Source: Candidatus Heimdallarchaeum aukensis
Lineage (GTDB): Archaea > Asgardarchaeota > Heimdallarchaeia > Heimdallarchaeales > Heimdallarchaeaceae
NCBI GenBank assembly: GCA_021513695.1
Contig: CP084166.1
Location: forward strand, 1,952,001 to 2,016,000
DNA length: 64,000 bases
Reading direction: 5' to 3'
The notes under the pieces are model-generated. The model was not told where the DNA came from. It was given only the letters and a program-made list of their open reading frames with translations, and searched no databases. Below, piece by piece: positions 7,860 to 50,917 of this stretch (its first letter is position 1; every line of letters starts with the position of its first letter). Position numbers and translations under genes: made by a program.

Positions 7860-7953
7860 AATAATAAACGAGATTTCTCTATATAAAGTTAAAGAATTAT
7901 AACATAGCTGGTATTTTTGGAGTTTAAATATTTTCGTAGTATATCTCTAATGA

Positions 7954-9868: not shown

Positions 9869-10756
9869 ATGTATGAAAGTTTGGAAGAGATAGGAAAAGT
9901 TTTTTCTACAAAACAGATAAAGATCCAATCAATAATCTCTGGATTCAGTGCAATCTTTAAAAGAAATATTTCAATAATAGCAAAATACAAACTAAAAATT
10001 TTCAACTCGTTTTTGAATAGTTTTATTGCATATTCAATGTATTTTTTTGTTTCTTTATTATTACCAAAGAAAGTAATAGCTACAGAAAGCTATACTGTTT
10101 CTGGTGTTTCTTATATTTTTTCTGGATTATTAATTGCATCATACGGTACTACAATCTTAGGAGCAGGATTAGGATCTTTAACTAATGAAATGAGACAAGG
10201 TACTTTTGAATCAATAGTTTTAACACCATATGGCCTTAAAAAATATATTATTATAGAAATAATTTCAGAGGTAATATATTATTCATTTCAGAATATCATC
10301 TTTCTTTTTCCAATTTTGTTAATTTACCCTTTTACAAGCAGTTTAACAAGTTTTACACTAAAAACGATTATGACACTAATAATTTTATTGCTTGCTTACA
10401 TACTATTCATGTCAATTCTTACATTAACATCATCTTTAATAGTTGTAGTATTAAAAAGAGGAAGAGAAATTGCTTTGGCAATTTCAGGCCTACTACACTT
10501 TTTGGGAGGAATTTTGTATCCAATATCAGTTTTCCCAAAATTTCTTCAAGCCATAGCTTTAGCTTCACCGTTAACACAGGCCATATCAGCTTTCAGAGAG
10601 ATATTATTTACTGGTGCAGTGCTAACAAACACAACAGTTTGGAGTGCAATTATTATATTACTGGTTTACGCTTGTGTATTAGTATGTTCATTCAATTGGT
10701 TATACAAAAAAGTCTACTTAATAGTGCAGAAAAAAGGCTCAATATCTCATTATTAG
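9869..10756 (+). CDS. ABC-2 type transporter permease (second subunit)
   Basis: Multi-pass hydrophobic protein in the same operon. Confidence 0.6.
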   Translation: MYESLEEIGKVFSTKQIKIQSIISGFSAIFKRNISIIAKYKLKIFNSFLNSFIAYSMYFFVSLLLPKKVIATESYTVSGVSYIFSGLLIASYGTTILGAGLGSLTNEMRQGTFESIVLTPYGLKKYIIIEIISEVIYYSFQNIIFLFPILLIYPFTSSLTSFTLKTIMTLIILLLAYILFMSILTLTSSLIVVVLKRGREIALAISGLLHFLGGILYPISVFPKFLQAIALASPLTQAISAFREILFTGAVLTNTTVWSAIIILLVYACVLVCSFNWLYKKVYLIVQKKGSISHY

Positions 10757-10831
10757 CTTTTTAAAGTTCTTTATACGCTTTAGATAATTATTAACATTAA
10801 ACCACAATCTAGAAAAAATAAATCAGTACAT

Positions 10832-11140
10832 TCATTGTACTGCATTCAATATGTCACTATCTCCTGTTTCATAAATAGTTAAAGCAGAAACAAAATGTGG
10901 TCTTCCACAAGTAGCACCAAGATCTAATGTTGAACTAGGAAATGTTAAAACGGGTGTATTTGACATTTTTGCGTAATATTCAATATCAGATTTTACATTT
11001 TTTGGTGTATTTTCTGCAATAATAACTAATTTAGCTTTATTGTTTAATAGTGCATTAATAGCTGATTTTGCACCAAAATCAACTTTACCCGTATCTACGG
11101 CGATTCTAATACTCCGGTTTAAATCCATCTCATTATTCAC
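10832..11140 (-). CDS. rpl30e: ribosomal protein L30e
   Basis: 102 aa. KLVIIAEN...IEYYAKMSNTPV...GATCGRP matches the L30e/L7Ae fold family. Confidence 0.75.
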   Translation of the reverse strand: MNNEMDLNRSIRIAVDTGKVDFGAKSAINALLNNKAKLVIIAENTPKNVKSDIEYYAKMSNTPVLTFPSSTLDLGATCGRPHFVSALTIYETGDSDILNAVQ

Positions 11141-11381
11141 CTTGATTGGACTGTTAGATTTTTAGTTATAAAGATTATTAATAATGACAAAATTTTGGCA
11201 ATAATTATTATTCTAAATCCGAGTCTTCTTTTATTTCTTTCAATATCTAGAAAATAATGTTCTAATAAAGCTAGTTACAATCTTAACAATAAGAAATTCA
11301 AACAAAAAATTAACAAAAAACGTTTATCTCGTAGTGCGAAATGTTTAAAAGAACCAATGTTTTTCAAAAAATGAGAATATT

Positions 11382-11816
11382 ATGACGAAAAGATTACCGT
11401 GGATACTTCCGGGCATAAGAAGACCTAAATTTAATCTTCATCAAGTAACATTTCGAATACCCACTGAAATTCCACAAAGTGTTTGGTATTTTATAGTATA
11501 TGGAATAATATTTTACATTTTCAGTGGTGGAGCTTATGATATCGTCAATAAAGATTATATTGCTCCATTGGGAAGTGGATCGCAAGGACAACCTCTTTTT
11601 GTTTATCCTGCCACACAAGCACAATTTCTTATTGAAGGAATAGTAGCTGGTTTTATCATTGCCTTTGCAGCTTTAAGTTTATACTTATTTGATTATGCAA
11701 CAAGATTTACCTTTGATGTGAACACGGCACAAAAAATTGAAGTAATAGCTTCAATATTTGTTTTAATCTGGTATGTTGTTATAGTGCTTTTATACAAGAA
11801 AAAAACAGGAGGATAA
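11382..11816 (+). CDS. hypothetical membrane protein (about 3 TM)
   Basis: Three hydrophobic helices. No family recognised. Confidence 0.45.
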   Translation: MTKRLPWILPGIRRPKFNLHQVTFRIPTEIPQSVWYFIVYGIIFYIFSGGAYDIVNKDYIAPLGSGSQGQPLFVYPATQAQFLIEGIVAGFIIAFAALSLYLFDYATRFTFDVNTAQKIEVIASIFVLIWYVVIVLLYKKKTGG

Positions 11817-11931
11817 TTTTTTTTCATATTTTTTTCTCGTTTAATTTTTTCATTAATCAAAATGTTCAAAAGACTGCACTCGAGAGTGCAATTAGCCTTA
11901 TGAAAACTACATTTACAAAGGTGCTTAATGA

Positions 11932-14678: not shown

Positions 14679-15737
14679 TTATTTTAAGAGTTTTAAAAGG
14701 ATTTTTTTTCTATTTTCAGTTTCTTCAGAAAAATATTCTGGAAATTTTTCTTTTATTTCGTTTTTCCATTCTTTTTTAGAGATAGAATTAGAAAATTTGA
14801 ATGGAAACAACTCATTAGCTATTTTAAACAGGCGTGCTTGCTCAATATAGCTAAAGAAATCTTTTTTGTTTGTTTTTGTCAAAGAAATGCCTATCTGGTG
14901 GTGGTTACCTTTTTTTCTTATTTTTGCTTTAATCCCAACTTCTGATAAGAGTTTTATCAGATACTTTTGTTCTTCAAACGTAAAGTTATTTGTACATAAG
15001 GATAAATCAGTACCTGAAAAATAACCGTCGTCAATATACCAAAATAATAAAACAGTTGGTGTTAGAGTAAGATCTTTTTTCAAAACCTTTTTTGTTTTAC
15101 CTAATTTATTTGAATACCAATTTTCCCAATAACTAAAAAATTCTACAGAGGAAGAAGTATCAAAGCCACAAGACCATTTTATTGATTCTGTATTACTCGG
15201 TTTAACAAATACCTTTAGTTTCGTAAAACTGCTAAATAGAGGAATAAGAGTTTTAATCCACTGAAACTCTAATATAGATTTATGGATTCTTAATGCAGCA
15301 GTATTTACTTTTGAGATTTTAGATACACATTTATTCCAATTAGAGATATCTGTGTTAGTTATAGCTTTTCCTTCATTTACTTTCTTTCTTAATTTTTCGG
15401 CTCTATCCAATAAACGGAGATATTCTGACAAAAGAGGTTGCTTCTTACTCGCTTGCAATTTTGTTTGCAATCGTAAATTTGCGTCTCCCAACATCATTCC
15501 TTCAATGATTTCTTGTATCTCTAAAGGGATAGGATGTGTAAATTCCTTGTTAATATGGTTTCTAGTTTTCGTCCAAAGTGAACCAGGAAAAGGTATTTTC
15601 AAACCCATTGAAGTTAAAAGAGGTTTTATAGTTCTTGGATCTTTATTCAATTCTTTTCCAATTACCTTTATTCCCTTTAATTCACCAACATACATTTTTA
15701 ACAGTTTTTTTTGTATTTCTGTTATTTCTAATGTCAT
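14679..15737 (-). CDS. free-standing LAGLIDADG-family homing-endonuclease-like protein
   Basis: Two LAGLIDADG-like motifs: GMMLGDANL at about aa 70 and LLFWYIDDGYFS at about aa 225. Not embedded in an intron or intein. Confidence 0.45.
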   Translation of the reverse strand: MTLEITEIQKKLLKMYVGELKGIKVIGKELNKDPRTIKPLLTSMGLKIPFPGSLWTKTRNHINKEFTHPIPLEIQEIIEGMMLGDANLRLQTKLQASKKQPLLSEYLRLLDRAEKLRKKVNEGKAITNTDISNWNKCVSKISKVNTAALRIHKSILEFQWIKTLIPLFSSFTKLKVFVKPSNTESIKWSCGFDTSSSVEFFSYWENWYSNKLGKTKKVLKKDLTLTPTVLLFWYIDDGYFSGTDLSLCTNNFTFEEQKYLIKLLSEVGIKAKIRKKGNHHQIGISLTKTNKKDFFSYIEQARLFKIANELFPFKFSNSISKKEWKNEIKEKFPEYFSEETENRKKILLKLLK

Positions 15738-19604: not shown

Positions 19605-22600
19605 CTATTGTTCAAGAAGAAAATCTGATAAATTAACAGATTTCTTTTTCTCTGTTTTTCTAATTTTACGCTTTGATTTTTTATCAGCTGATCCATCATC
19701 AGGTAGGAACATTGTTAAAATGTTTTGTTTTAGTACGTCTATCCTAGATCGCAAATATTCTGAAACTGAATATTTCGAAACTAAATAATTGATAATATTA
19801 AGATATTTGGTTACTGATTTTTCAAAAACAGTAAGATTTAGCTTATTTGCACCACATTTTGTACAATATCCGCCCAAAGGAATACGACGATAGGTAGTAT
19901 TACAATTTGTGCAACGTATTTTTTGGCTACCAAATCTACGCATATTACCTATAAGATCTGGCAGAAATTGTTTGAAAATTACTCTTGTTGCTACATCGTC
20001 AACATCAACTGCTCTAATCTTACTAGCTAGTTCTAATTGTGCATCCACTTTTTCTTTCATTGTAGCTAAACGAGTATAAAGAGAAGATTTTTCGCCTACG
20101 AAAATTGAGGAAGTCTCATGACTATAGGAAAAACCTTCATAGGCAGCTTTTGTGTTTAACCTATGACTTACAATGTCAATTAAAGGGAGAACCTTCTTTG
20201 CGGGTAATGATTTCAGTGTAGATTCATAAAAAGACAAAGGATAAGAGTTACCTGTATCAACGTTATGAGACTCATCATCAACCTCAAAGGGATCTATTGT
20301 AGAAACCAAAATTAGCGGGGCATCCATTTGACCGCCTCTAACTTCTGGTAAAAAGAATTTTGAAAAATTAAGAAAAGCATCAAGAGCTAGAAGAATACTA
20401 TCCTCATCTCCATCGCAGTTCATCGTAATGCAACTAGTTGTCTGGAAATTATGTAACATTGTGTCATTTCTTATTGTTTCAACTTCCAAACAATATGAAG
20501 CCTCTTCTTTTGCAATATTATTTATTTCAGCTATTTGGTCACATATAGTATTATGTGCTTCTTTAAGTTCATAATAGTGATTGTTGTATTTTATCCGTCT
20601 ATTTTCAGGAAAACCTTTTTTAATAAATTGTTTCAGTTTTTCTTTTTTATTTTGATTAATTAGATCTAGATGTTGCATTATCCAAAGGTCTGCTCCTCTA
20701 ATAGATATTTTGTGAACAACTGTCTTTTTAGGCTCTTTTCCCAATTCTTTATATTTTTCCAATATTTTTTTGCCAAAATGTCCTTCTGGAGAAGATACTC
20801 TAGATCTTACGAATACACCAATGGTTGAAAAGAGATAAGTTATATCCTTTAATAATTCATTTGAAACAGAATAGAATGATATTTCCCCTACATCTTTTGA
20901 GAGCGTTCCATCTCCATCTAGATAGGCGGAAATAAAAGCTAATTTATATTTAGTTGGTACTGTATAGAGAAAGTTTGGCAAACGTTTTCTATAAGCTCCT
21001 TTCCCCATATTCCATGCATATGCGAAAAGATAGGCTAATATTCTTCCAGAACAAATAACGTTTCTTTCTTCGCTGATATAAGGAGTAAGACCTAGAGTTC
21101 GTTTTATTATTTCCACCAAATATTTTCTCATTTTTTCGTCTGGGATAGAAAAATTAATCTGATAACAGTTCTTATTATCCCGAATATGTCCTTCAGAAAT
21201 GTAATAACCTAGAATTCTCATTAACTCATCATTAAAAGGAAAATAGGGAGAAATAGTAAAATCATCTCTAGCCATCCCCAATCTTGCATCTGAAGGGATC
21301 TCATTCCAGTCAAAAATTCCTTCTTTTTGCAAAAGTTCTAAGTGGGATAAGGGGATAGAATCAAACCAGTGATTAGAAAAGAAGTATGTAGAATGAGGTA
21401 TATCGATTCCTTTTGAAAGAATATAATTTAGAAGTATCTTAGTACATGAAGAAGAGTTAATATTGCTGCTTTTTTCTTGAGAAAGTTTATTGCAGAAATC
21501 GTTTAACTTACTTTTTATCCAATTTCGGGCTTTTCTAAGTCTTACTGTGTGTTTAAATTCAGTAAACTTCTTGCTGTCAGGTAAGTTTTTTGCCAATTCC
21601 TCTAAAACATTTACTACTTTGTTATGTTGAAACCCTAACTCTGGAATCTTTGTTTTAATTGCAATATATTCGCCTATTTGTAAATTTCTTGCTTTCACAT
21701 TTTCGAAATCATTTGTCAGTTCATTCAACACGAGCATATTGTGGTCAGGTGTTACTGTTATTTCATTTCCACTTTTGGTTTTTATTTGCAACCATCTTTC
21801 ACTTTTTCCCTTAATCCAATGCTTGATGGGTTGTAAAATAGAAGAAGAGTTTTTTTGATCTAGACTAATGACCTTCCATTCTTTATGAAGATTCTCAATT
21901 GCAAATGTCCCAAAATCATCTACCAGCTTACTCTTAGCTCCTGATTTTATCTCTTCTTCTACTAGTTCTCCAATACTTTTTACAATGACCTGTTTCTTAT
22001 TTTCGTCCCAAATAAGTAGTTGTTCAGTTGGAAATAAACAATTTCTTCTTTTTGCTGCATGCCAATAAGGATGAGCTAATATTACTTTAGCATCAGTAAA
22101 TCCTATTAACCTTCCAGCAATACCTGCTGAAGTATGAGGAGCTAAACCTATAATTAAATGACCAACTAGGTCATTAATTGTTTTTGCTTTGTAAAAGGGA
22201 GGAAGTCCATACAATCTTTCTAACAACTCATCGATAAAATGAGAGACTTTTAGGAGATATTTACCTCCTTCCTCATTAACAATCACATCTTGAATTTTTA
22301 ATTCTAGTAGCTGATCTTCATTTTCTAGTAAATTCCCATGAATATCGTGTGTATAACCTATAGAATGGAGTTTTGAAATTGAAACACCAATTTCTTTTGG
22401 CTTAAAATGCGTAATTACAGCATCAGTAGCATCAAAACGTATTGTTCCATCACGGTATACAAATACATCGTTTAAAGAACGTAATATCCCTTTTACTATA
22501 AATTCTGGTATACGATGTTTATTCATCAGTTTTTTAACAGCTTTTACATTTTTAGGTAAATCAGAGTTAAATTCTCTTGCAATTTTTCTAAATTCTTCGT

Positions 22601-24776
22601 TAATAGGAAAGGGTTTAGTTTTGTAACTAATTAGAGGTATCCCACACCTTTTACATTTATCGTCATTAGATTCTAACCCACATCTTGGACAAAATTTAAT
22701 GATTTCTGTTACTACATTACAACGTGAACATATGGATAAATGCGTAGTAGAACCACATACATGACATTTTCTTTGTACTAATTCGATCTCTATAACTTTT
22801 TTTTCACTCGCGGAAACAATATTTCTTTGATTACCTCCTGCTTCACCAATTGGAAAAAGTAGATGCACTGGAGGTTTCATCTTTCTACTTTTAGCTTTTT
22901 CTGGACGCCCCATTCTTGCACCAGTATAACAAGGACACTTATCTCTCACTTTAATATATTTGTAGGAGTTAATTATTTCTAAAACAGTTTTTGCTTTATT
23001 TTCCACCGGAAGTAAACTTCCATTTTTAAAACCTAAAGATATTAGTAGAGTTTGCGAATGTTCCCCAAATAAAATTTTTCCATCCCTTATAGAGTGAGGA
23101 ATGCATATTTCTTCCAAAATTGTTTTTATCTCTTTATCATAAGGTAACTCTAAATTTTCATCTTTATTATAGTATGATGATATATATTCACGTAACCGAA
23201 TATATGCAGAAATTGAAATATCATTCCAATGATATGTATATTCAGGATGAAGTGGAATATCAAGTAAAAGCGATAGTCCTATAGCTTCTTCAGCGGTTGG
23301 GATAATGTTCAAGGGGTCTTTTATGAACTTATCAAACTTTTGTTTTTTATTTTTAAAAAACTGATTTATCTCTACTTCAGAAAAATTCATTAACTGCTTC
23401 TCAAGTTCTTTTGCCCACCATTCTTCACAATATCCAGAAGGTACAAGATCATGGTTAAACTGGTTAAATTCACCTACACCATAAAGCATATCTCCAAGAA
23501 AAAGAATCTTTTCTATTTGATCTTTTAATTGAATACCTTCTTCATAGGAATTAACTTTACAAACATTACCGTTTTTTAGAAGCACAATAGGTGGATGTAT
23601 AGAATCCACAGGCATGACAATGGCTCCTTTTCCGGGTCTTTCTGTTCGCAAATGTGTTCCACAAACCAAAAAATCATTTGTGATTGCAAAAAGTGCTGGA
23701 TGTACACCCATTGCAGCTAATCCAGTAATTCTAGAACGCCCATATCTAATCCTAAAACCACCTTTCGCGGATGGATGACTAAAAACTGGCCTTCCACCAA
23801 TTACGTCTTGAATATAACCTGTATCAGGCTTAATAAACAAATTATCTTGCTCAATTTCATGTTTACTTGTACCTTTTTCTTCATCAGTTTCTCCAGAATT
23901 CTCAATATTCTGGCTTGAGTGTATTTGTATTAAATCGGAAAACCAGTCCCAACCCTTTAATTTATGTTTTGATACTCTTTTTTCAAGTTTTTTTACTCTA
24001 CCCACAATACCGTCATTAAAAACTAAACAAGCACCTCCTCTAAGTCTATTAGTTTCAATACGTTTCAAATCTCTATTTCCAGAAACTTCAACTTTCTCAG
24101 TAGGTTCTCCTGTGATTTCAATGGGAAGATTTCTTGCCGCAAATCGCTGCTCCTCTTTAGTTGTGGGAAGTTGTAAATGCATTACTTTGTTGTAAAGATC
24201 TATTTCCTCTACCGTTCGCTCTATTTCTCTCTCTGTAGGTTTATACCTATCAAGTTTTAATGTTCGTCGTATGTGATCAGCCAACAAAACACTCATACCC
24301 GCTGCCGTACCACCAGCAGAGCGTATAGGTCCAGCATAGTAAACAGCTAAGTAGTCGGATCCGTCATCATTTTGCTTAATTTTTACTTTCGCTATACCTT
24401 CAAGAGGAGCTGCAGTGATGCTTTCAGTTATTATTGCCAATGATGTACGGAGTGCTTGCTCGGCGAGCTCAATTTTTTCAGAAGAAAAAAATTTACCTTC
24501 AGCTATTTCTTCTGCAATTTTAAATGCCACGCTTTCGCGAGAGAGACCTTGTCTTTCAAGTTCTCTAATTCTCTTCCCAACCCCTTTAGGTCCAATTAAT
24601 CCTTCAACTCGATCAGCAATATCTTTAGCGATAGGTATTTCAACTTCAGAAGAAGGATCATAACCTTTTTTTCTCGCCTGTTTAGCAATCCTATAAGTTT
24701 GTTCTATCAATGAATTAATTTCCTCAAAATATCCCCTAACATTTACTGAAATTAACTCGTCATCTGATATTTCCAT
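19605..24776 (-). CDS. DNA polymerase II (PolD) large subunit DP2, intein-containing
   Basis: DP2 N-terminus, Zn-ribbon clusters, and the RRN/CDGDED catalytic motif split by a 541-aa insertion. Confidence 0.95.
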   Translation of the reverse strand: MEISDDELISVNVRGYFEEINSLIEQTYRIAKQARKKGYDPSSEVEIPIAKDIADRVEGLIGPKGVGKRIRELERQGLSRESVAFKIAEEIAEGKFFSSEKIELAEQALRTSLAIITESITAAPLEGIAKVKIKQNDDGSDYLAVYYAGPIRSAGGTAAGMSVLLADHIRRTLKLDRYKPTEREIERTVEEIDLYNKVMHLQLPTTKEEQRFAARNLPIEITGEPTEKVEVSGNRDLKRIETNRLRGGACLVFNDGIVGRVKKLEKRVSKHKLKGWDWFSDLIQIHSSQNIENSGETDEEKGTSKHEIEQDNLFIKPDTGYIQDVIGGRPVFSHPSAKGGFRIRYGRSRITGLAAMGVHPALFAITNDFLVCGTHLRTERPGKGAIVMPVDSIHPPIVLLKNGNVCKVNSYEEGIQLKDQIEKILFLGDMLYGVGEFNQFNHDLVPSGYCEEWWAKELEKQLMNFSEVEINQFFKNKKQKFDKFIKDPLNIIPTAEEAIGLSLLLDIPLHPEYTYHWNDISISAYIRLREYISSYYNKDENLELPYDKEIKTILEEICIPHSIRDGKILFGEHSQTLLISLGFKNGSLLPVENKAKTVLEIINSYKYIKVRDKCPCYTGARMGRPEKAKSRKMKPPVHLLFPIGEAGGNQRNIVSASEKKVIEIELVQRKCHVCGSTTHLSICSRCNVVTEIIKFCPRCGLESNDDKCKRCGIPLISYKTKPFPINEEFRKIAREFNSDLPKNVKAVKKLMNKHRIPEFIVKGILRSLNDVFVYRDGTIRFDATDAVITHFKPKEIGVSISKLHSIGYTHDIHGNLLENEDQLLELKIQDVIVNEEGGKYLLKVSHFIDELLERLYGLPPFYKAKTINDLVGHLIIGLAPHTSAGIAGRLIGFTDAKVILAHPYWHAAKRRNCLFPTEQLLIWDENKKQVIVKSIGELVEEEIKSGAKSKLVDDFGTFAIENLHKEWKVISLDQKNSSSILQPIKHWIKGKSERWLQIKTKSGNEITVTPDHNMLVLNELTNDFENVKARNLQIGEYIAIKTKIPELGFQHNKVVNVLEELAKNLPDSKKFTEFKHTVRLRKARNWIKSKLNDFCNKLSQEKSSNINSSSCTKILLNYILSKGIDIPHSTYFFSNHWFDSIPLSHLELLQKEGIFDWNEIPSDARLGMARDDFTISPYFPFNDELMRILGYYISEGHIRDNKNCYQINFSIPDEKMRKYLVEIIKRTLGLTPYISEERNVICSGRILAYLFAYAWNMGKGAYRKRLPNFLYTVPTKYKLAFISAYLDGDGTLSKDVGEISFYSVSNELLKDITYLFSTIGVFVRSRVSSPEGHFGKKILEKYKELGKEPKKTVVHKISIRGADLWIMQHLDLINQNKKEKLKQFIKKGFPENRRIKYNNHYYELKEAHNTICDQIAEINNIAKEEASYCLEVETIRNDTMLHNFQTTSCITMNCDGDEDSILLALDAFLNFSKFFLPEVRGGQMDAPLILVSTIDPFEVDDESHNVDTGNSYPLSFYESTLKSLPAKKVLPLIDIVSHRLNTKAAYEGFSYSHETSSIFVGEKSSLYTRLATMKEKVDAQLELASKIRAVDVDDVATRVIFKQFLPDLIGNMRRFGSQKIRCTNCNTTYRRIPLGGYCTKCGANKLNLTVFEKSVTKYLNIINYLVSKYSVSEYLRSRIDVLKQNILTMFLPDDGSADKKSKRKIRKTEKKKSVNLSDFLLEQ
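20418..22040 (-). mobile_element. intein with LAGLIDADG homing-endonuclease domain, inserted in DP2 between RRN and CDGDED
   Basis: The insertion starts with Cys (CLFPTE...) and ends ...SCITMN before extein +1 Cys. The internal LAGLIDADG motifs are ILGYYISEGH and FISAYLDGDG. I checked the codons at both junctions against the DNA. Confidence 0.8.
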
Positions 24777-24998: not shown

Positions 24999-25291
24999 TT
25001 AGTTAAGAATATATTTAATTATTTAATAAAATGAAGTAGTAAAATAAATCACATGTACATGCCATCTAGCAAGTAATTAAAGATTTTTTTTGTTGTGAAC
25101 AGCGGTGAATGTTTTAAACTCAAGAGTTGTGAAACAAAATAAAGACATTCTAAAGTATTCTGTCGGTTATATCTGTTCACTTATCTTCAAATCATTGTGA
25201 ATTTTGAAAACAACGTATCTGCTAGGTATTACGTTTGCAGTTCTCATAAAAAACCAATAAAGAATCAACAAAAAATCAAAAAAAAAGAAAA

Positions 25292-25726
25292 TCATGCATT
25301 AATTTTCTCAGCTTTATATTTTTCTAATATCTTGGCTATTCTTTCTGCAATTGGCCCTGTACCTTTTACTCCTTCCTCTGAAACTGTGAATCTATCTAAC
25401 ACTTGTATGATTCCTGCTTCTTCTATAATTTTCACATTTTGTGGTTGAAACATAGCTGATAATTCCTTTGCAAGACCAGTAAGATCAAAGGGTTCTTCTG
25501 CCAAAGTTATTTCGGAAATACTCTTCCCTGCAATAAAAACTCTAAATATTTTCACATTATCACTTTCAGCATCACCCAACACAAGATTCAAGGATTGATC
25601 TTGGATTCCACGTAATATTCCAGTATAGACTCTACCTGATTCTAAAATAATTTTTACACGTTTGTTCAAAAGTGCACTCAATTCTAACAGAAATTCTCGA
25701 TTTGGATTACTTGGCATATCTATCAA
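25292..25726 (-). CDS. Sm-like archaeal protein with C-terminal extension
   Basis: Sm1-like segment RVKIILESGRVYTGILRGIQDQSLNLVLGDAES. The 144-aa length suggests an SmAP3-like two-domain protein. Confidence 0.6.
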   Translation of the reverse strand: MIDMPSNPNREFLLELSALLNKRVKIILESGRVYTGILRGIQDQSLNLVLGDAESDNVKIFRVFIAGKSISEITLAEEPFDLTGLAKELSAMFQPQNVKIIEEAGIIQVLDRFTVSEEGVKGTGPIAERIAKILEKYKAEKINA

Positions 25727-25780
25727 GGTTCAATTTTTCTATTATTAAAAAAATGTTGTTATTTTTGAGCATTTAGTAAT

Positions 25781-27784
25781 TTAGAAATTAATCTCAGACA
25801 CGGTATTTTTTATTTTTTCCTTTGTATTTCGATGTGTTATTGTGTAAATAGGACACACATCAAAACATTTCTCACATTGGACGCAAGTACTAGGGTCAAC
25901 AATCAAACCTTTGTTATTAAAAGATAATGAATAGGTTTTACATTCATCAAAGCACAGTTTACACTCTAAACATTCTTCAGTTCGTAACACAGAAAAAACA
26001 AATTTTTCAACAAAATTTTTCAATTTCTTTTCATTATTTTTTCCCAATCTCAATTTAAAAGTCCCATCAGGATAGAGAAATGCTGTAAAATCATTTTTCT
26101 TTACCTGTATGAAATCTAAACTATTATTATTAACAACTTTTCCTACCATTGAAAGTGTTTTTTGTAGATTTTCAAATTTAGTAATCCTCGAAAAAGAACC
26201 AATTATAGTAGTTTGTTGTACTCTACATTCTGATTCTTCTACATCAATATCATCCAAATCAATAGCCATTTTTCTTTTTTCAATTATAAAGAGATCTTTT
26301 TTATCAAGTGTCAAAATATTTCTAATTTTTTGAGGGATGTGCTTAAAACGCCATAAGCCTTTAGTAATATACTCTTTCGGTAATTTCTTTTTATTTCTCC
26401 ATTTTTCTAATTCTCGTGATAATTTCTTATACAATCGCCTATTATTGTTTTTCAATAAATCAAATTGAGCAAGATTTGATGAAGGACAAACCCAACAGCC
26501 TATGCGTTCATATTGTTTATCATATAAAGGATTGTAAGGTAAGTTATTTAAGAAAATATATAACCAAACAACTAAAGCAGTCCAATTTTGAATAGGAGAG
26601 ACATTTATTTGATTAGGAATATAATGATTTTGCCAGATATCGGCAGTAGCTCGAGCATAAGATTCATAACGTCGTTGACCAACTAAACTTATACATTTTC
26701 CTTCAGGGTAATTCTGGAGTATTAACTCTCTAATAGGAGCTAGCTTCGCAAATTTACAACAATATCTATAATCCCTTCCAGGAGGACCAAATTTCTGAAA
26801 AGCATTCCAAAATGTTTTAGTTTTAACTTTTTTTACTTTTAAATTGTCTTTAAAATTCATTTTTTTACTTAACCTTTTTACATAAGAAACTGTTTGAGGA
26901 AATTCTATTCCAGTATCTACAAAAAAGATTTTCAAGTCTTCCTCTGGTAAAGCTTTTTGAGCTAAGTCTAAAGTAACCAAACTATCCTTTCCGCCACTAA
27001 AACTTACAGCCACAGGTAGCTTTAACTCCTCCTTTATTCTTCTGATAAATTGAACAGCTTCTTTAGTAATATCATTAATTATACTTGAATTTGCTTCAAT
27101 TACTTCATCCCATGTCGTTTTCTTTATTTTTCTTAGAGTTCTATTTTTTATGGTGACATAATTTTTTGCATAAGTCCCTCTTGCTTGTTTTTTTCTTTCT
27201 ACTTCATTAATTTTGGCTATGCCCCCAGCAATTACGTTTTTATTCTTATCCAAAATTGCAATGTAATTATCTTTTCTTATTCGACGATCTGCGTCGATAA
27301 TTCCAGGAATAAGCGCATTTGAGCCATTTAAAATGTTATTAATTGCACCATCATCAACAATTACCCAATTTTTTCTAATCTCTTTTTCTATCAATAAAAG
27401 TCCATAAGCATTTAATTTAATGGTCCAATGCCTATAAACTAGATCATATCGCCTTATTCCAATGATATTACCATAATAAACTATTTCATCCATCTGATCC
27501 TCTGAACCCACATGGTTGAGCAGTAATACGTCATCTAAAGAAAATATCTTTTTTCTTACTCCAAAATTCCGTTTTATTAGCTTTAATATTTCCTTTATAT
27601 CCTGTTTTGTAGCTGGGCGAACATCATAGGGAGGAGTTATTGGGATTTTATTTAATTTCTTCCCGCATTTAGGACAAATATCAGACTTAACAATTGGTAG
27701 AGAACAATCACTACAAAAATAGAGAATATTTTTTCCTAAATAGGGAATATTCTTCTTTTTCTTTCGTTTTTTCTTTTCTTGCAT
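25781..27784 (-). CDS. PUA-domain PP-loop ATP pyrophosphatase (PAPS-reductase-like) with C-terminal 2x[4Fe-4S] ferredoxin domain
   Basis: N-terminal Zn ribbon CSDCS...CPKCG, a PP-loop VAVSFSGGKDS, conserved Cys pairs (CCKF, CWVCP), and C-terminal CLECKLCFDEC...CVQCEKCFDVCP. Confidence 0.6.
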   Translation of the reverse strand: MQEKKKRKKKKNIPYLGKNILYFCSDCSLPIVKSDICPKCGKKLNKIPITPPYDVRPATKQDIKEILKLIKRNFGVRKKIFSLDDVLLLNHVGSEDQMDEIVYYGNIIGIRRYDLVYRHWTIKLNAYGLLLIEKEIRKNWVIVDDGAINNILNGSNALIPGIIDADRRIRKDNYIAILDKNKNVIAGGIAKINEVERKKQARGTYAKNYVTIKNRTLRKIKKTTWDEVIEANSSIINDITKEAVQFIRRIKEELKLPVAVSFSGGKDSLVTLDLAQKALPEEDLKIFFVDTGIEFPQTVSYVKRLSKKMNFKDNLKVKKVKTKTFWNAFQKFGPPGRDYRYCCKFAKLAPIRELILQNYPEGKCISLVGQRRYESYARATADIWQNHYIPNQINVSPIQNWTALVVWLYIFLNNLPYNPLYDKQYERIGCWVCPSSNLAQFDLLKNNNRRLYKKLSRELEKWRNKKKLPKEYITKGLWRFKHIPQKIRNILTLDKKDLFIIEKRKMAIDLDDIDVEESECRVQQTTIIGSFSRITKFENLQKTLSMVGKVVNNNSLDFIQVKKNDFTAFLYPDGTFKLRLGKNNEKKLKNFVEKFVFSVLRTEECLECKLCFDECKTYSLSFNNKGLIVDPSTCVQCEKCFDVCPIYTITHRNTKEKIKNTVSEINF

Positions 27785-27788
27785 TGCA

Positions 27789-28808
27789 TTATACCTGTTT
27801 TAGTAATCTCATCAACACCCTAGGTAAGGAATTATAACTTTTTATTTCGGCAAATTTTCCTCGTCCTAATCTTGCAAGATCTTTGCATAACCTAGTTCCC
27901 CAATCATGTTTTGATGGAAGTGCAATAACATGTAATTTAGGATAATACATTAAGTATTTTCGGGGGTCTCCTCCTCTGTTGAATGCACCATCTGTTATTA
28001 AAATACCAAATTTATTCTTTCTTTTTATTTTCTCTAATTCAAGACCACCATATTTCAATCCTTCAGCAATATTTGTATAACCAGCACTCTCACTTTCTAA
28101 TATTCTATTTACTAATTCATCGGTTCTTACTCTTTCTTTCATTCTTTTAATCACAGTTGCTTTTGTATTGAACAATACTACACTGAAATTATCGCGTGCT
28201 AGGTTGTAGGCCATAACTGCAACAGCAAGAGCAGCAGTTGTAAATTTTTCACCATATAAAGAACCTGAAGTATCAAAAATCAATACGGCTGTTTTTAACC
28301 TCTCTTTTCTTTCTAAAGCTACAATATCTTCCCTATGCAATATTCTACTTCGATTTTGTAAGAATCGTTCTAGGGTTTCATCAATATCAAATTCATCTAA
28401 ACCAGGTTCAAACTCTGTTTGTTCAAAAACCTCTCCACGAATACCTTGACCAGTTATACCGTAAGCTGTTTTCAAGATTACTTGCCTAGCCAATCTCCTG
28501 AAAATAGGCCTCATTTTATCATCTATTGCTGTTCTTAGCATGAAAAACAATTCTGGAGCACTACTATCTCCTTTTGCAGCTCTTCGAGCTAGAAGGGTGT
28601 AGCCTTTTTTTGAGTTCAAAGCTTCTGCTACAGCAAATTTATTTGATATAGCTAATCCTTGAATAGCAGGCATATTGTTTACATCAATAGCTAATTCGGT
28701 CTGTTTTTTTATCTCATAGAAACTCATTCCATCTGAAAGACTAGAATATACAGATGGATTCCTTTTACCAGAGACTATTTCTGCTTCAAGTAGTTTGTTT
28801 TTATCCAT
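27789..28808 (-). CDS. von Willebrand factor A (vWA) domain protein
   Basis: MIDAS-like DTSGS (VLIFDTSGSL), a downstream ITDG, and a gene order typical of MoxR partners. Confidence 0.65.
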   Translation of the reverse strand: MDKNKLLEAEIVSGKRNPSVYSSLSDGMSFYEIKKQTELAIDVNNMPAIQGLAISNKFAVAEALNSKKGYTLLARRAAKGDSSAPELFFMLRTAIDDKMRPIFRRLARQVILKTAYGITGQGIRGEVFEQTEFEPGLDEFDIDETLERFLQNRSRILHREDIVALERKERLKTAVLIFDTSGSLYGEKFTTAALAVAVMAYNLARDNFSVVLFNTKATVIKRMKERVRTDELVNRILESESAGYTNIAEGLKYGGLELEKIKRKNKFGILITDGAFNRGGDPRKYLMYYPKLHVIALPSKHDWGTRLCKDLARLGRGKFAEIKSYNSLPRVLMRLLKQV

Positions 28809-28864
28809 TCGACCTCTGTAAACGTATGGCTTTTGAAGATCAAAGCTTATGTCCCCCCCCTCTG

Positions 28865-29761
28865 TTAGAAAAAATCCTCTTCTTCAAACACCTTGTTTAC
28901 AATTTCTTTTATTACATCTTCTACTTGGCTTTCTACTCCATCCTCTAATTCTATCTTTGTAGCTAAAGCCATAATGCTGCTATCAATCCAAGAATCAATG
29001 TCATTAGGATCTAAAAATCGGATTATAGAAGCTAAATCTATTGCTCCACGGATTGAGGAACCTCTCCTTAGATCAGGCCAATCCCTTGTTTTTCTAACAA
29101 TTCTTACAGCAATTTTTACAATTTTATCGTCTTTTATTCCTGTTTTTACACGAACAATATTTTCTTCTTCTTCTTCAGATTGATAATTTAAACGAACCCA
29201 AACAAATCTATCTCTTAAAGCCTCACTTAATGGTGTTGTGGCTACAAGTTCTGCTGGATTCATAGCACTTATTATAAAGAAACCATCTTTAGCTTTCACT
29301 TCTCCTAATTTAGGCAAAATGATTGTACCCTCATCCATTGCAGCTAATAAAACATTTTGAGTACCTTCAGGCATACGGTTAAGTTCATTAAGAAAAAGTA
29401 TAGCTCCATCTTGCATAGCTTTTGTTAATGCTCCTGTGACAAAAGATTCCCAGCTATATCCTTTTTCTATTACCATAGGGGGATCAAAGTGCCCCACTAA
29501 TTTTGAACTACTATAACGCTCATCTCCGTCCACTCTTTCAATATTTTGTGAGAAGTAGGAAGCAATAGCATGAGCTAATGTAGTTTTTCCTACACCTACA
29601 TCTCCTTCTAATAAAATATGTCTTTCAGCTAGTTTGGCAGCTAAGCATTTTCTGAGTTCTCTTTCACGACCCACAATATTATATTTATCTTGTATCTCGC
29701 TAATCATCTCATCAATAGTCTTCTCTTGTTTCGCAACGCTTTTTGCAGTCATTTTAACCAC
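28865..29761 (-). CDS. MoxR-like AAA+ ATPase
   Basis: Walker A LLEGDVGVGKTTLA, Walker B ILFLNELNR, and a MoxR-family length of about 300 aa. Confidence 0.8.
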   Translation of the reverse strand: MVKMTAKSVAKQEKTIDEMISEIQDKYNIVGRERELRKCLAAKLAERHILLEGDVGVGKTTLAHAIASYFSQNIERVDGDERYSSSKLVGHFDPPMVIEKGYSWESFVTGALTKAMQDGAILFLNELNRMPEGTQNVLLAAMDEGTIILPKLGEVKAKDGFFIISAMNPAELVATTPLSEALRDRFVWVRLNYQSEEEEENIVRVKTGIKDDKIVKIAVRIVRKTRDWPDLRRGSSIRGAIDLASIIRFLDPNDIDSWIDSSIMALATKIELEDGVESQVEDVIKEIVNKVFEEEDFF

Positions 29762-30055
29762 TTATATTTGTAAACAACTATAATTTTAGTATACTCCACT
29801 TTGTGTTTTATATAGTTTTAGATTCAGCTTATTTCTTACACATATTTTTGCAGAGTATAATTGTTACTGCTGTTTGATATGTGTTTTATATAGTTTTAGA
29901 TAATGTTCAAGTTAAAAGTAATAAAAGGCTAAATACCCAAAGTGATATACAAAAAAGATTGCTACCTGATTAAAAATAGATAATAGTTGTTACTGCCATC
30001 AGAATTGATTAAAAAAAAATTAAAGATCAAGGCTTCTTAACGGAAATAATTTTTT

Positions 30056-30079
30056 GATAGTGATAGTGATAGTGATAGG
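30056..30079. repeat. hexanucleotide microsatellite (GATAGT)x4, followed by an (AAT)3 run
   Basis: Direct tandem repeat visible in the sequence. It underlies a spurious low-complexity ORF (YHYHYH). Confidence 0.7.
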
Positions 30080-30281
30080 AATAATAATAACGATAGCAAT
30101 TGCATAATAATATCGAAACAGAAAATGTTAAAACGTAAGTGGAGAGCCAAAGCGGAAAAATGAGAAATCTTACCACACCACATAATATTATGTGGTAAGA
30201 TATTTCAATCAAGCAAAGTGGGTTTCCAGCCGAATAACAACAAAAATCAACTAAAAATGAGCTGAAAGACAAAATAAAACT

Positions 30282-35191: not shown

Positions 35192-36409
35192 ATGGATGAG
35201 CATTCCAATATAGACAGTATATTTGACAAATATTTAGATGAAGATAATCCAATATTTATAAATCGTGAGATACTTAGTCCTAATTATGTTCCTGAATATC
35301 TTCCGCATAGAGAAGATAAATTTGAAGAGATGGCAAAAATATTGGGACCTGCTTTGAGAGGAGGTTCACCCTCTAATATTTTTATTTATGGTACAACTGG
35401 AACAGGAAAAACAGCTGTTACGAAATATGTTTTAAAAAAGTTGAAAAAAAAGGCTGATGAACGAGAAATAGAGTTTAGTTTTTCGTTTTTTAATTGCCAA
35501 CATATTGACACAAAGTATCGCGTATTTGCTCAGTTGTGTGATGATATAGCAGTTGATGTTCCATTTACAGGTCTTCATTTTGATATTGTTTATCAAAAAT
35601 TTAAAGAGGGGCTAGATGAATTAAAAACTCTTCATATTATTGTATTAGATGAAGTTGATTCCTTGTATAGAAAGAGTACTGAATCATTATACATCCTTAC
35701 TAGATTAAATAGTGAATTGGTTCAATCAAAAATTGGGATAATAGGTATCACGAACGATGTGAATTTCAAAGAAACTTTGGATCCTAGGATACGTAGTAGT
35801 TTAAGTGAAGAAGAAATCGTTTTTTCACCATATACTGCTGAACAATTAAAAGATATTTTGAATCAACGAGTAGAAAAAGCGTTAAACAAAGACGCTTTAG
35901 AATTTGGTGTTTTGAACTTATGTGCTGCAATTGGAGCTCAACAGCATGGAGATGCTAGACGGTCAATAGATCTTCTACGTGTTGCTGCAGAATTAGCTGA
36001 ACGAGAAGGAGCTGAAAAGGTAACAGAGTTACATGTAAGAAAAGCTCAACAAGTTATAGAAAGAAATACAGTTGTTGAAGTATTGAGTTCATTACCCATT
36101 CAAACAAAAGCTGTCTTACAAGCTATATTTATTGGTGAAAGTAAAAGTGAGGAACTAAATACAGGCGATGTTTATGATATTTATTCTTCAATTTGTAAAC
36201 TAATACGTTTAGATCGTTTAACTCCTAGAAGAGTTAGTGATTTAATCAATGAATTGGATATGCTAGGTCTTGTGACAGCTAGAGTAATAAGTAAAGGTCG
36301 ATATGGGCGTTCAAAAAGAATTAATCTTACTATTCCCAAGGCACAAGTTAAAGAGATTTTAGAAAAAGATTTTAGACTTTCAAAAGTTTTTGAGGAGAAT
36401 TCAGTTTGA
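35192..36409 (+). CDS. cdc6: Orc1/Cdc6 replication initiator
   Basis: PEYLPHREDKFEEM, Walker A GTTGTGKT, Walker B VLDEVD, and a C-terminal winged helix. Confidence 0.9.
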   Translation: MDEHSNIDSIFDKYLDEDNPIFINREILSPNYVPEYLPHREDKFEEMAKILGPALRGGSPSNIFIYGTTGTGKTAVTKYVLKKLKKKADEREIEFSFSFFNCQHIDTKYRVFAQLCDDIAVDVPFTGLHFDIVYQKFKEGLDELKTLHIIVLDEVDSLYRKSTESLYILTRLNSELVQSKIGIIGITNDVNFKETLDPRIRSSLSEEEIVFSPYTAEQLKDILNQRVEKALNKDALEFGVLNLCAAIGAQQHGDARRSIDLLRVAAELAEREGAEKVTELHVRKAQQVIERNTVVEVLSSLPIQTKAVLQAIFIGESKSEELNTGDVYDIYSSICKLIRLDRLTPRRVSDLINELDMLGLVTARVISKGRYGRSKRINLTIPKAQVKEILEKDFRLSKVFEENSV

Positions 36410-40640: not shown

Positions 40641-40955
40641 ATGACACAAAGAGCAAGAATTCGCTTAATAGGGAATAATCCACAAAGTCTTCAAAGAATA
40701 TGTAATCAGATTCAAAAAATTGCTGAAAGAACAGGTGTAAGAATCAGAGGACCAATTCCTTTACCTTCAAAAAGAATTGTTTTACCAGTGAGAAAAAGTC
40801 CTTGTGGAAATGGAACTAGTACATATGACCATTTTGAATTGAAATTACACAAAAGAATAATTGATATGGATGCTGAAGAAAAAAGTATGCGATTATTAAT
40901 GCGTATTCATGTTCCTGAAGATGTTCATATCGAAATTGCACTTGAGCGCAGTTAG
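40641..40955 (+). CDS. rps10: ribosomal protein uS10
   Basis: RIRLIGNNPQSL...GPIPLPSKR...SPCGNGTSTYDHFELKLHKRIIDM matches the S10 pattern. Confidence 0.8.
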   Translation: MTQRARIRLIGNNPQSLQRICNQIQKIAERTGVRIRGPIPLPSKRIVLPVRKSPCGNGTSTYDHFELKLHKRIIDMDAEEKSMRLLMRIHVPEDVHIEIALERS

Positions 40956-41073: not shown

Positions 41074-42006
41074 TTAGATATTTGTCTCAAGAGGTGGATA
41101 ATAATATTTTATCAAATTTAATATGTCTTCAATGGAATCAAAAAAAGAATGATTTTCTCGTAACTTGCGAATAAAGTTAACCATTTTTTCGAAATATTTG
41201 ACAAAAAAATACTCAGGAAGAAGCATCACACAAAGGGGTTTTAATTTACCATTGTTGATTTTATCATAAATTATATCTTCAAATATTTGTCTGTTAATTC
41301 TGGACAATGTTCCTTTTAGTAACACCAATTCTCCAATAAGTTCTCCTATAATATCTTTCATTAATTCTTGTTGCCTTGATATAAACGGAATTAAAAATAA
41401 GAGATCACTTGGATTTTTGTCTGCATTTATTATTTTGTAAAAGATATCATCATTTTGGAGAATTTCAAGTTTTGTGCAAAATTTTCTTGATCTTTCCCGA
41501 ATAAATTGAATTTTAACTGTTTTTCCTAGATAATATTTTTTTTCTAAAGATAATTTGATTTGATTATTGATCTCAATTATGTCATTTTTTTCTCTAAAAA
41601 GACCATGTTCAATAGTTATTGTCTTATTTTTGTTATTATATTCTATATTTCTAATTATTCCTGTAACAGTTTCTGTTTTTCTTTCATTTAAGTCTCTAAA
41701 AAAATAATTTTCTAAATCAAACAGAAGAATCACTTCACCAAATTTTCCATCTGTAATTATTAGTTCTCCCTTTTTATTTTTAATACAAAAACCGTTAATG
41801 ATTTTGATTGTCAGACCAGAGCAAATAAAGTCCTTAACGTTTACATTTCTTTTTATTCTAAACTTGTAATATTTGTTATCTCTTACTGCTTTTCCTTCAA
41901 TTCCCCATTCTTGAATTGTAAATGATCTTATCACCCCAACAAATTCCTTTACTGTTTTTCCTGGTTCAAAAAAGGTTCCTTTAGGAACGTAGATGCTATT
42001 ATTCAT
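41074..42006 (-). CDS. hypothetical protein
   Basis: ORF only. Confidence 0.4.
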   Translation of the reverse strand: MNNSIYVPKGTFFEPGKTVKEFVGVIRSFTIQEWGIEGKAVRDNKYYKFRIKRNVNVKDFICSGLTIKIINGFCIKNKKGELIITDGKFGEVILLFDLENYFFRDLNERKTETVTGIIRNIEYNNKNKTITIEHGLFREKNDIIEINNQIKLSLEKKYYLGKTVKIQFIRERSRKFCTKLEILQNDDIFYKIINADKNPSDLLFLIPFISRQQELMKDIIGELIGELVLLKGTLSRINRQIFEDIIYDKINNGKLKPLCVMLLPEYFFVKYFEKMVNFIRKLRENHSFFDSIEDILNLIKYYYPPLETNI

Positions 42007-48776: not shown

Positions 48777-49387
48777 AAAGAAAAGAACGAATAATTGTAT
48801 AAAAGAATAACCATAAGCAACAGAGAAGCAAAATCGCGACCAAAAATGTATAAGTAAGTTGATTTGTGAAGGTACAAAATTGATCATTTTTGTGGTTTCG
48901 AGTGGGTCAAGCACAATTGAGAAGTTTCTGAAGGAAAAACAAGAGCATATTTTCTATTGTTAATGGTTACATTAATTATCTTGATTAGTTTAGTTTTTCT
49001 AGTAATGTAAGGTGAAGGTCTAACGTTGCTCTATTCATTTAAAACGCTCTAACATCTCTGATTTAATAAAGAATCTTTGATTCTTGATAAATTCAAAGAT
49101 TTCGAGCAGTTTTCACTTGACAAAGCTTAACTAGGTCAGAACGAAATTCGTAATGGATGTTTAACATCTAAAATCATCCAACTTGAAATGTATTCGATTG
49201 ACCTTAAATGCCATAAAATAGTAATATTAGAACATTTTAGTATAAAAAAAGCATCACAAAACCCGCTCCAAGAGTACATATTCGCATTAAATAAAAGAAA
49301 CAGGGCATACGTTTAAATTTTTGCTGAAAAATCGAAGATTCAATTTTATCAAGCGAAAAATAGAGTGGTTAGAAAAAAGTAGAAAAA

Positions 49388-50889: not shown

Positions 50890-50917
50890 ATAGGCGAAAA
50901 CTGATATCTAAAGTAAT

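Follow-up and report, generated by a model that had tools for sequence, protein, structure and literature searches.

Do four genes that stand tightly packed on one strand in the genome of Candidatus Heimdallarchaeum aukensis form a dedicated molecular system, or are they members of wider families that have come to lie side by side in one lineage? The genes are located in a stretch of 64,000 nucleotides (nt; contig CP084166.1, positions 1,952,001-2,016,000), hereafter called the window, whose own coordinates are used throughout. Four co-oriented minus-strand genes at 25292-29761, separated according to their open reading frame (ORF) coordinates by spacers of 56, 4 and 54 nt, encode a MoxR-class ATPase, a protein with a von Willebrand factor A (vWA) domain, a PP-loop enzyme and an Sm-like (Lsm) protein. 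We find that this string is an arrangement of one family, the Heimdallarchaeaceae, and not a new conserved system. The explanation that we favor, and that we hold to be rather probable, is a Heimdallarchaeaceae-specific operon joining a housekeeping, RNA-directed PP-loop enzyme that carries iron-sulfur (Fe-S) clusters, an autonomous chaperone pair resembling NorQ and NorD (NorQD), and an Lsm protein of the SmAP3 type. The four genes, in the order of their strand, are:

28865-29761, minus strand: NorQ/CbbQ/GvpN-like MoxR-class AAA+ ATPase (AAA_5), 298 amino acids (aa), from Pfam and Protein Data Bank (PDB) matches
27789-28808, minus strand: vWA partner protein with a metal ion-dependent adhesion site (MIDAS), 339 aa, from Pfam VWA, AlphaFold2 (AF2) and Foldseek
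25781-27784, minus strand: PRK13795-family PP-loop enzyme, 667 aa, from NCBIfam and Pfam
25292-25726, minus strand: SmAP3-type Sm-like protein (LSM and Lsm_C domains), 144 aa, from Pfam and a PDB match

The four ORFs are real genes and not chance readings, because they are long, match their families strongly and have orthologues in public genomes at 80-100% identity. A first-pass annotation of this DNA had described the same layout, four consecutive minus-strand genes with gaps of 4-56 nt; the coordinates and spacers are as it gave them, and Pfam matches together with motif alignment confirm the domains that it had named in all four proteins. By comparison with orthologues, the true start of the ATPase gene is likely the ATG at 29752 and that of the Lsm gene likely the ATG at 25717, which would give a protein of 141 aa. 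Each gene belongs to a known family, that of the PP-loop enzyme, PRK13795, being catalogued yet uncharacterised.

From the side of the PP-loop gene, linkage was followed in the 80 best of at least 509 genomic loci that encode a relative (one genome per species), with 10-kb flanks, using tblastn, ORF clustering and family hidden Markov models (HMMs). The order MoxR-vWA-PP-loop-Lsm is present in all eight Heimdallarchaeaceae loci (L001-L008, of which the L004 contig ends inside the vWA gene), where the PP-loop protein is at least 48% identical to that of the window. None of the other 72 loci among these 80 has a MoxR or vWA gene within 10 kb of the PP-loop gene. They come from Methanosarcinales, Methanomassiliicoccales, Thor-, Loki- and Hermod-archaea, Thermococci and Aenigmatarchaeota, and the neighbors of the PP-loop gene in them are lineage-specific and functionally unrelated. 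Methanosarcinales, for example, have thiolase, HMG-CoA synthase, a Cas4-like protein and PurH beside it, Methanomassiliicoccales an aminotransferase and FtsZ, and Thor- and Lokiarchaeota Hef, DeoC, AOR, a cytidylyltransferase and Cdc48; DinB is also among the neighbors. In L086, another Heimdallarchaeia genome, the PP-loop gene stands without the MoxR-vWA pair.

From the side of the vWA gene, a metagenome scan with the vWA alignment provided 80 loci, which were screened with HMMs. The PP-loop gene lies directly downstream of vWA in 12 of the 12 loci with 80-99% vWA identity that reach the junction, and Lsm is next in five of the six that extend far enough, whereas the PP-loop gene is found in none of the 67 loci with 40-60% vWA identity. 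The ATPase gene stands upstream of vWA in the metagenome loci wherever the contig allows and, more generally, the two genes adjoin in every locus whose contig reaches far enough. The junction from vWA to the PP-loop gene is thereby present in all 21 Heimdallarchaeaceae loci that reach it (8 genome loci, the further contig L088 and the 12 metagenome loci), and Lsm directly follows the PP-loop gene in 14 of the 15 loci of this family that reach far enough. Six contexts outside the Heimdallarchaeaceae also have adjoining ATPase and vWA genes with no adjacent PP-loop or Lsm gene, and their neighbors differ (ABC transporter; 6PGD and G6PD; S10, Cbf5 and Sec61-beta; EF-Tu-like GTPase; PAS-kinase and HTH_10). 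Because the 67 metagenome loci and these six contexts are without the PP-loop gene, the pair is autonomous and its adjacency to the PP-loop gene is a family-level trait. Weak 'PP-loop' HMM matches near MoxR-vWA pairs elsewhere correspond to 4Fe-4S domains of Flavoprotein and DUF362 proteins.

As a distinctive linked system, the string thus holds at the level of the family only. The first-pass annotation had turned on whether MoxR-vWA accompanies the PP-loop gene in other genomes: it does so throughout one family and not in the loci examined beyond it. The outcome that it had set against its own proposal, a common, single-copy archaeal enzyme with no conserved linkage to MoxR-vWA, is largely what is observed, with the qualification that the linkage is stable in one family. 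Its statement that the four-gene arrangement is undescribed stands, as no account was found in the searchable literature.

Within the Heimdallarchaeaceae, the surroundings of the string change while its core does not. Seven sister genomes (L002-L008) have a longer string, c43-MoxR-vWA-PP-loop-Lsm-TgtA-c30, after which S10 lies on the opposite strand; the gene after Lsm encodes the tRNA-modifying enzyme TgtA (524 aa; 451 bits against an equivalog cut-off of 350). The window has TgtA (47184-48914), c30 (41074-42006) and S10 (40641-40955) at 15-22 kb from the string, and no c43 counterpart is detectable in it. The L088 contig shares the outer flanks of the window, PolD on one side and winged helix-turn-helix (wHTH), Zn-ribbon and permease genes on the other, and has the block inverted. 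Because of this inversion and the different flanks of the sister genera, the four-gene core must have survived at least one inversion and the loss of both flanks, and on that ground the string is probably an operon. Between the window and L002-L008, identity is 55-62% for PolD, 52% for TgtA, 48-52% for the PP-loop protein, 72-75% for Lsm and 80-84% for MoxR and vWA. In L002-L008, c43 (~200 aa, upstream of MoxR) and c30 (~312 aa, after TgtA) are conserved Heimdallarchaeaceae proteins that belong to no significant Pfam or NCBIfam family.

The 4-nt gap between the vWA and PP-loop genes and GAGGT-like motifs before the internal starts fit one transcription unit, so that the four genes would be co-transcribed. 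Two elements bound the string:

29802-29901, minus strand: candidate tandem archaeal promoter, two 22-nt direct repeats ATCTAAAACTATATAAAACACA with a TATA-like box in each, role putative
25248-25286, minus strand: candidate archaeal oligo-T terminator, T9, T6 and T6 directly after the Lsm stop codon, role putative

The repeats at 29802-29823 and 29880-29901, listed as 78 nt apart, are perfect copies (2 matches against 0.01 expected by chance). The proximal one ends ~40 nt upstream of the ATPase start, and TATA repeats are found upstream of the ATPase gene only. Both copies are recognisable upstream of the H. endolithica orthologue, one of them slightly diverged. The TATA-containing repeats are a candidate for the tandem promoter of the string, as the T runs are for the end of its transcription unit. 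A bacterial promoter and terminator scan gave fewer sites than shuffled sequence and is not applicable to archaea. The spacer between the wHTH and ATPase genes also contains hexamer repeats, (TGATAG)n, as well as an inverted repeat of 17 nt with 88% complementarity, at 30055-30078 and 30161-30207; L001 has similar elements in the corresponding position.

What, then, are the parts? The reading of the MoxR and vWA proteins as a known chaperone-like pair was sound; of solved structures, NorQ and NorD are the closest to them. The ATPase matches Pfam AAA_5 (1.3e-22) and AAA_3 (6.5e-15), both over their cut-offs; its best NCBIfam match, GvpN (4e-22), is below cut-off, and of its single-domain PDB matches NorQ is the best, with 50.7 bits. 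A midasin-like ATPase was considered and rejected: the top PDB E-value of 9e-39 sums six to eight AAA-domain matches of at most 28 bits each, and NorQ is better per domain. For the model of the vWA protein, the MIDAS domain of MDN1 ranks under NorD in Foldseek. Conserved elements of the ATPase comprise the Walker A motif GDVGVGKT, sensor 1 (N168), an arginine finger (R185) and sensor 2 (R232/R233). In its Walker B motif Asn-Glu replaces Asp-Glu, with the pattern (I/L)F(L/I/A)NE (ILFLNELNR in the window), in 12 of 12 family members down to 45% identity (alignment A3).

The vWA protein (Pfam VWA, 1.8e-8) consists of a helical N-terminal domain (aa 1-120) followed by the vWA domain, and its MIDAS residues D179-x-S181-x-S183, T245 and D273 are invariant among 22 vWA homologues. 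Its AF2 model, with a predicted local distance difference test score (pLDDT) of 87.7, has NorD in the NorQD complex as best Foldseek match (9qhd_G, E 3.2e-8). It shows 100% identity with a Ca. Heimdallarchaeum aukensis protein, and its family is small: ~101 matches, whose named members are almost all from Heimdallarchaeia or Asgard archaea.

NorQD acts as a chaperone that inserts the FeB cofactor into cNOR (PMC9976466). The pair in the window shares with NorQ/NorD, CbbQ/CbbO and CoxD/CoxE the adjacency of an AAA_5 ATPase and a MIDAS-bearing vWA protein. It differs from all three in having no NorCB, RuBisCO or carbon monoxide dehydrogenase (CODH) client genes nearby; nor genes, encoding the norCB client, are absent from the window flanks and from the related loci. 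From NorQ/NorD it differs further in the NE rather than DE of the Walker B motif, in a vWA protein with its own helical N-terminal domain, and in a membership drawn, as far as named, almost wholly from Asgard archaea. No account of such an NE-type pair was found in the searchable literature. Judged by these sequence relationships and its free-standing loci, MoxR-vWA is an autonomous two-gene unit most like NorQ/NorD. In a single case, the Kariarchaeaceae contig L081 (10860-12750), an IbrA-like gene with PAPS_reduct and DUF3440 domains and a ParB_N partner lie 2.8 kb downstream of MoxR-vWA; the IbrA-like gene belongs to a different PAPS-reductase subfamily.

The PP-loop protein had been called unusual, and this description does not survive. 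The protein passes the NCBIfam equivalog PRK13795.1-2 (NF010367) over aa 15-646, with 484.4 bits against a cut-off of 456, and it matches the sister models NF010368, NF010369 and NF010366 strongly, though below their own cut-offs. Its homologues number 1,719 at E<=1e-10 in a word-indexed search, in addition to the genomic loci counted above, and among representatives at 50% identity, searched exhaustively, 309 clusters reached E<=1e-30, the majority being full length (~600-690 aa). Named sources include Heimdall-, Hod-, Loki-, Thor-, Odin-, Hel-, Baldr-, Jord- and Freyarchaeota as well as Bathyarchaeia, Methanosarcinales, Methanomassiliicoccales and Hydrothermarchaeota. Because no Heimdallarchaeaceae genome has two loci among the 80 best matches, the gene looks single-copy in this family, and PRK13795 is probably single-copy. 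The Methanoperedens contig L033 has two PRK13795 paralogues in divergent orientation (6878-8719 and 10001-11845), ~31% and ~35% identical to the query, with one gene between them. NCBIfam names the family 'hypothetical protein', and no characterised member was found in the searchable literature. Aravind and Koonin, in their 1999 description of the PUA domain, reportedly listed a family of predicted ATPases with a possible part in RNA modification.

The architecture upholds the earlier reading of a PP-loop/Fe-S enzyme with an RNA-binding PUA domain. Pfam gives PAPS_reduct (9.8e-47; 159.7 bits against a cut-off of 22.5), PUA (4.8e-13) and, slightly over cut-off, the 4Fe-4S dicluster domain Fer4_7 (3.2e-6). 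The N-terminal part consists of a Lys-rich tail, a Zn ribbon (C24-C40) and a pre-PUA and PUA region at ~56-212, which matches archaeal COG2016-type PUA proteins (PH0734.1, Ta 1q7h, APE0525) as well as MCT-1, eIF2D, Nip7, Cbf5 and ArcTGT. The PAPS-reductase PP-loop domain with its SGGKDS and CC...CxxC motifs occupies 258-435, and is followed by a helical linker, an alpha+beta domain (~505-604) and a 2x[4Fe-4S] ferredoxin (605-647), so that three Fe-S clusters are predicted in all. The AF2 model is a confident one, with a pLDDT of 87 and a predicted template modelling score (pTM) of 0.86.

Conservation of these motifs was scored on an alignment of 28 homologues (A1). SGGKDS at residues 263-268 is invariant, as are C342-C343 with C430-x-x-C433 and seven of the eight ferredoxin cysteines (C605/608/611/615 and C634/637/640); C644, the eighth, is found in the window protein and is not kept family-wide. 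The Zn-ribbon cysteines C24/C27/C37/C40 are kept in at least 90% of the sequences, and no conserved Cys occurs between C433 and C605. The protein is 88% identical to its H. endolithica orthologue. Among the aligned lineages, the Lys-rich N-terminal tail (QEKKKRKKKKN, aa 1-15) occurs in Heimdallarchaeaceae PP-loop proteins only.

The nearest relatives of this protein are PAPS-reductase-type enzymes, BrxP first, followed by the reductases of adenosine phosphosulfate (APS) and phosphoadenosine phosphosulfate (PAPS), DndC and SspD. The first-pass annotation had pointed to TtuA/NcsA, QueC and DndC instead: the likeness to TtuA, NcsA and QueC stands at the level of the fold and that to DndC is weak. 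The BrxP HMM of PADLOC matches the window protein with 195 bits (3.4e-58; aa 218-643 against profile positions 92-501) and matches 28 of the 28 PRK13795 family members tested. The fragment aa 436-667 matches profile positions 380-501 by itself (E 1.8e-8), and for this reason the alpha+beta domain and the ferredoxin-like region are taken as common to BrxP and PRK13795. On these profile matches, the catalytic core of PRK13795 is clearly homologous to BrxP. PMC12839542 describes BrxP as a PAPS reductase to which an alpha+beta domain and a Cys-rich region resembling ferredoxin are added, in most cases with the DNA-binding DUF4007 fused to it. Both BrxP and BrxC are required for DNA phosphorothioate synthesis in type 4 of the bacteriophage exclusion (BREX) systems: deletion of brxC removed DNA phosphorothioates, brxP was not deletable, and heterologous reconstitution succeeded only when brxP was supplied (PMC12914056).

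This relationship raises the question of whether the locus is itself a DNA phosphorothioation or defense module akin to BREX type 4, Dnd or Ssp, a suggestion that the strong BrxP match and weaker ones to DndC and SspD would support and that we find hardly credible. PRK13795 has the extended BrxP core of PP-loop, alpha+beta and Cys-rich ferredoxin-like regions. Unlike BrxP, however, it has no C-terminal DUF4007 (BrxA-like HTH/wHTH): profile positions 502-779, the DUF4007 part, are unmatched in PADLOC, and a Zn ribbon and a PUA domain, which points to RNA, stand at the N-terminus instead. The DndC and SspD HMMs of PADLOC reach 45-50 bits over the PP-loop domain only, and the NCBIfam DndC model 37 bits against a cut-off of 290. 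The PP-loop gene is without the brxC, pglZ and brxL neighbors of brxP, and PADLOC and Pfam scans of the flanking ORFs found no BrxC, PglZ, BrxL, DndA/D/E or SspB/C within ~10 kb of the string. The flanks instead hold PolD DP2 with an intein, NAD synthase, a RadB-like protein, an ABC transporter, Orc1/Cdc6, aEF2 and an amidohydrolase; a defense-island reading was rejected, the same scans having given housekeeping genes alone. PRK13795 is moreover an archaea-wide housekeeping gene, near-universal and vertically conserved, whereas BrxP is a sporadic defense gene.

Could the enzyme then be the assimilatory APS/PAPS reductase of its public annotation, drawing electrons from the ferredoxin domain that it carries? 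Three things speak for this reading: the strong PAPS_reduct match; the CC and CxxC motifs, which in alignment fall on the residues that bind the [4Fe-4S] cluster in APS reductase of P. aeruginosa (2goy); and a PAPS-reductase-like M. jannaschii homologue, MJ_0973, perhaps of the PRK13795 family, for which weak APS reductase activity was reported (PMC3448663). The alignment stops at CxxC, however, and no conserved Cys precedes the ferredoxin, so that the defining C-terminal catalytic cysteine of sulfonucleotide reductases (the ECGLH-type tail), present in assimilatory APS reductases such as 2goy and M. tuberculosis 7lhr, is absent. The NCBIfam CysH, APS and PAPS reductase models lie far under their cut-offs (64-98 against 154-254 bits). 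The PP-loop protein also adds PUA, Zn-ribbon, alpha+beta and ferredoxin modules to the reductase plan, of which the Zn ribbon and PUA serve no purpose in sulfate assimilation, and no sat, cysC or sir gene was found near it in the flanking ORFs. We regard this identification as very unlikely.

From the [4Fe-4S]-dependent tRNA thiolases TtuA, NcsA and TtcA, the protein is set apart by its PP-loop subfamily, by four-Cys CC...CxxC ligands where those enzymes have three Cys, and by the extra ferredoxin module; its Pfam and NCBIfam matches include no TtuA/NcsA or ATP_bind_3-type model.

Our favored reading is that of a housekeeping enzyme directed to RNA, and its likeness to TtuA/NcsA, to APS reductase and to phosphorothioation enzymes suggests how it may work. 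The Zn-ribbon/PUA module would dock the RNA, for which tRNA and rRNA are the likeliest candidates; besides the PUA matches, the position of the tRNA-modifying TgtA gene straight after the string in the seven sister genomes speaks for such a substrate. The PP-loop domain would use ATP to adenylate the target atom, which may be a base carbonyl or a backbone phosphate; phosphorothioation enzymes are stated to act through adenylated intermediates in work cited in PMC12914056. The incoming sulfur would be handled at the CC...CxxC [4Fe-4S] site, and the C-terminal 2x[4Fe-4S] ferredoxin module would deliver electrons. In this scheme the DNA-binding DUF4007 tail of BrxP would correspond to an RNA-binding PUA head in PRK13795, the one having been swapped for the other. 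No account of the extended BrxP homology with such a module swap from DNA to RNA was found in the searchable literature. A bolder version would make PRK13795 the RNA-directed housekeeping sibling, possibly the ancestor, of BrxP, SspD and DndC, placing a phosphorothioate in the backbone of archaeal tRNA or rRNA, or marking these RNAs with sulfur in some as yet unassigned way; in the Heimdallarchaeaceae the enzyme would act together with a NorQD-like AAA+/MIDAS remodeller and an SmAP3 ring as a machine of four proteins. We consider this version a long shot.

The fourth protein matches Pfam LSM (PF01423; 1e-8, 35.1 bits) and Lsm_C (PF14894; 2.1e-17, 63.1 bits), both over their cut-offs. Pyrobaculum aerophilum SmAP3 (1m5q), a two-domain Sm protein with the same LSM and Lsm_C composition, matches it over nearly its full length (residues 12-137 against 1-125, E 2.1e-20). 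The search for Lsm homologues reached close relatives only (at least 65% identity). A conserved link between the PP-loop and Lsm genes was considered and rejected: an Sm HMM built from the window and L086 located a canonical Sm gene no more than 5 kb away in only three loci that lie outside the clade (L010 and L061, which belong to the 72, and L086, which was fetched separately), and in none of them is it adjacent. A published Lsm survey reports PUA-domain genes near archaeal lsm genes and does not mention a PP-loop enzyme.

It remains to ask whether the four proteins work together. A true four-gene system would have the NorQD-like pair mature or remodel the Fe-S PP-loop enzyme, or remodel its ribonucleoprotein substrate with the SmAP3 ring presenting RNA; cluster insertion or repair by the pair would then be likened to the action of NorQD on FeB and of CoxD/E on the CuSMo site, and the products would interact physically. 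This is consistent with a block intact in 21 of 21 loci despite inversion and changed flanks, with a 4-nt gap that suggests translational coupling, with NorQ and NorD as the closest solved relatives of the pair, and with a candidate client that has three predicted Fe-S clusters. The Lys-rich tail and the fast divergence of the PP-loop protein in this clade would fit adaptation to a partner. Neither partner needs the adjacency, however: the PP-loop family manages without MoxR-vWA in most archaea, and the pair is kept at 40-60% identity in 67 metagenome loci and in six genome contexts with other neighbors. We regard a true four-gene system as unlikely, yet as the foremost alternative to our reading.

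Several observations nevertheless weigh against the operon of otherwise independent units that we prefer. In the Hodarchaeota contig L087, the MoxR-vWA pair lies 5.5 kb from the PP-loop gene, on the other strand, a proximity that also speaks for a functional system and that could be a residual or recurrent association. The genes could be functionally coupled and not merely juxtaposed, since the block has been kept through two rearrangements and MoxR and vWA (80-84%) are far more conserved than the PP-loop protein (48-52%) across the same pairs of genomes. The unity of the operon may break at its far end: the spacer between the PP-loop and Lsm genes contains a T7 run and a TATA-like stretch, and the metagenome contig L102 is without Lsm, for which reasons Lsm may be a separate transcription unit. 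Finally, the assignments of RNA as the putative substrate and of sulfur as the probable inserted atom follow from domain logic.

The wider window offers further observations. It also carries an archaeal large subunit (LSU) ribosomal RNA and a C/D box sRNA. The LSU rRNA match at 50916-54339 spans 3,424 nt against a model of 2,987 positions, with ~440 nt of insertions; a small subunit (SSU) rRNA was not found in the 64 kb, and the rRNA genes appear unlinked. PolD DP2 (19605-24776) contains an insert of ~540 aa (aa 914-1452), which the L002 and L005 orthologues do not have; this insert is an intein, and the L088 orthologue has Intein_splicing and LAGLIDADG_3 domains. Orc1/Cdc6 (35192-36409) lies ~10 kb from PolD DP2, Cdc6 genes are near the block in L087 and L088 too, and these surroundings may be a replication-origin neighborhood. 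A free-standing LAGLIDADG_2 homing-endonuclease-like ORF of 352 aa is found at 14679-15737.

The locus thus draws attention to two unstudied subjects. PRK13795 is a widely conserved archaeal protein without an assigned function, and the link of its whole catalytic core to BrxP, for which a part in phosphorothioation is by now supported genetically, gives a testable hypothesis, that it performs ATP-dependent sulfur insertion into RNA; defense and housekeeping enzymes could in this way be related through the exchange of a DNA-binding for an RNA-binding module. MoxR-vWA is a so far unstudied module from the archaea most closely related to eukaryotes, marked by its NE Walker B motif and by identities of 80-84% between the genera of Heimdallarchaeaceae, and for this pair the operon of that family supplies one candidate client.

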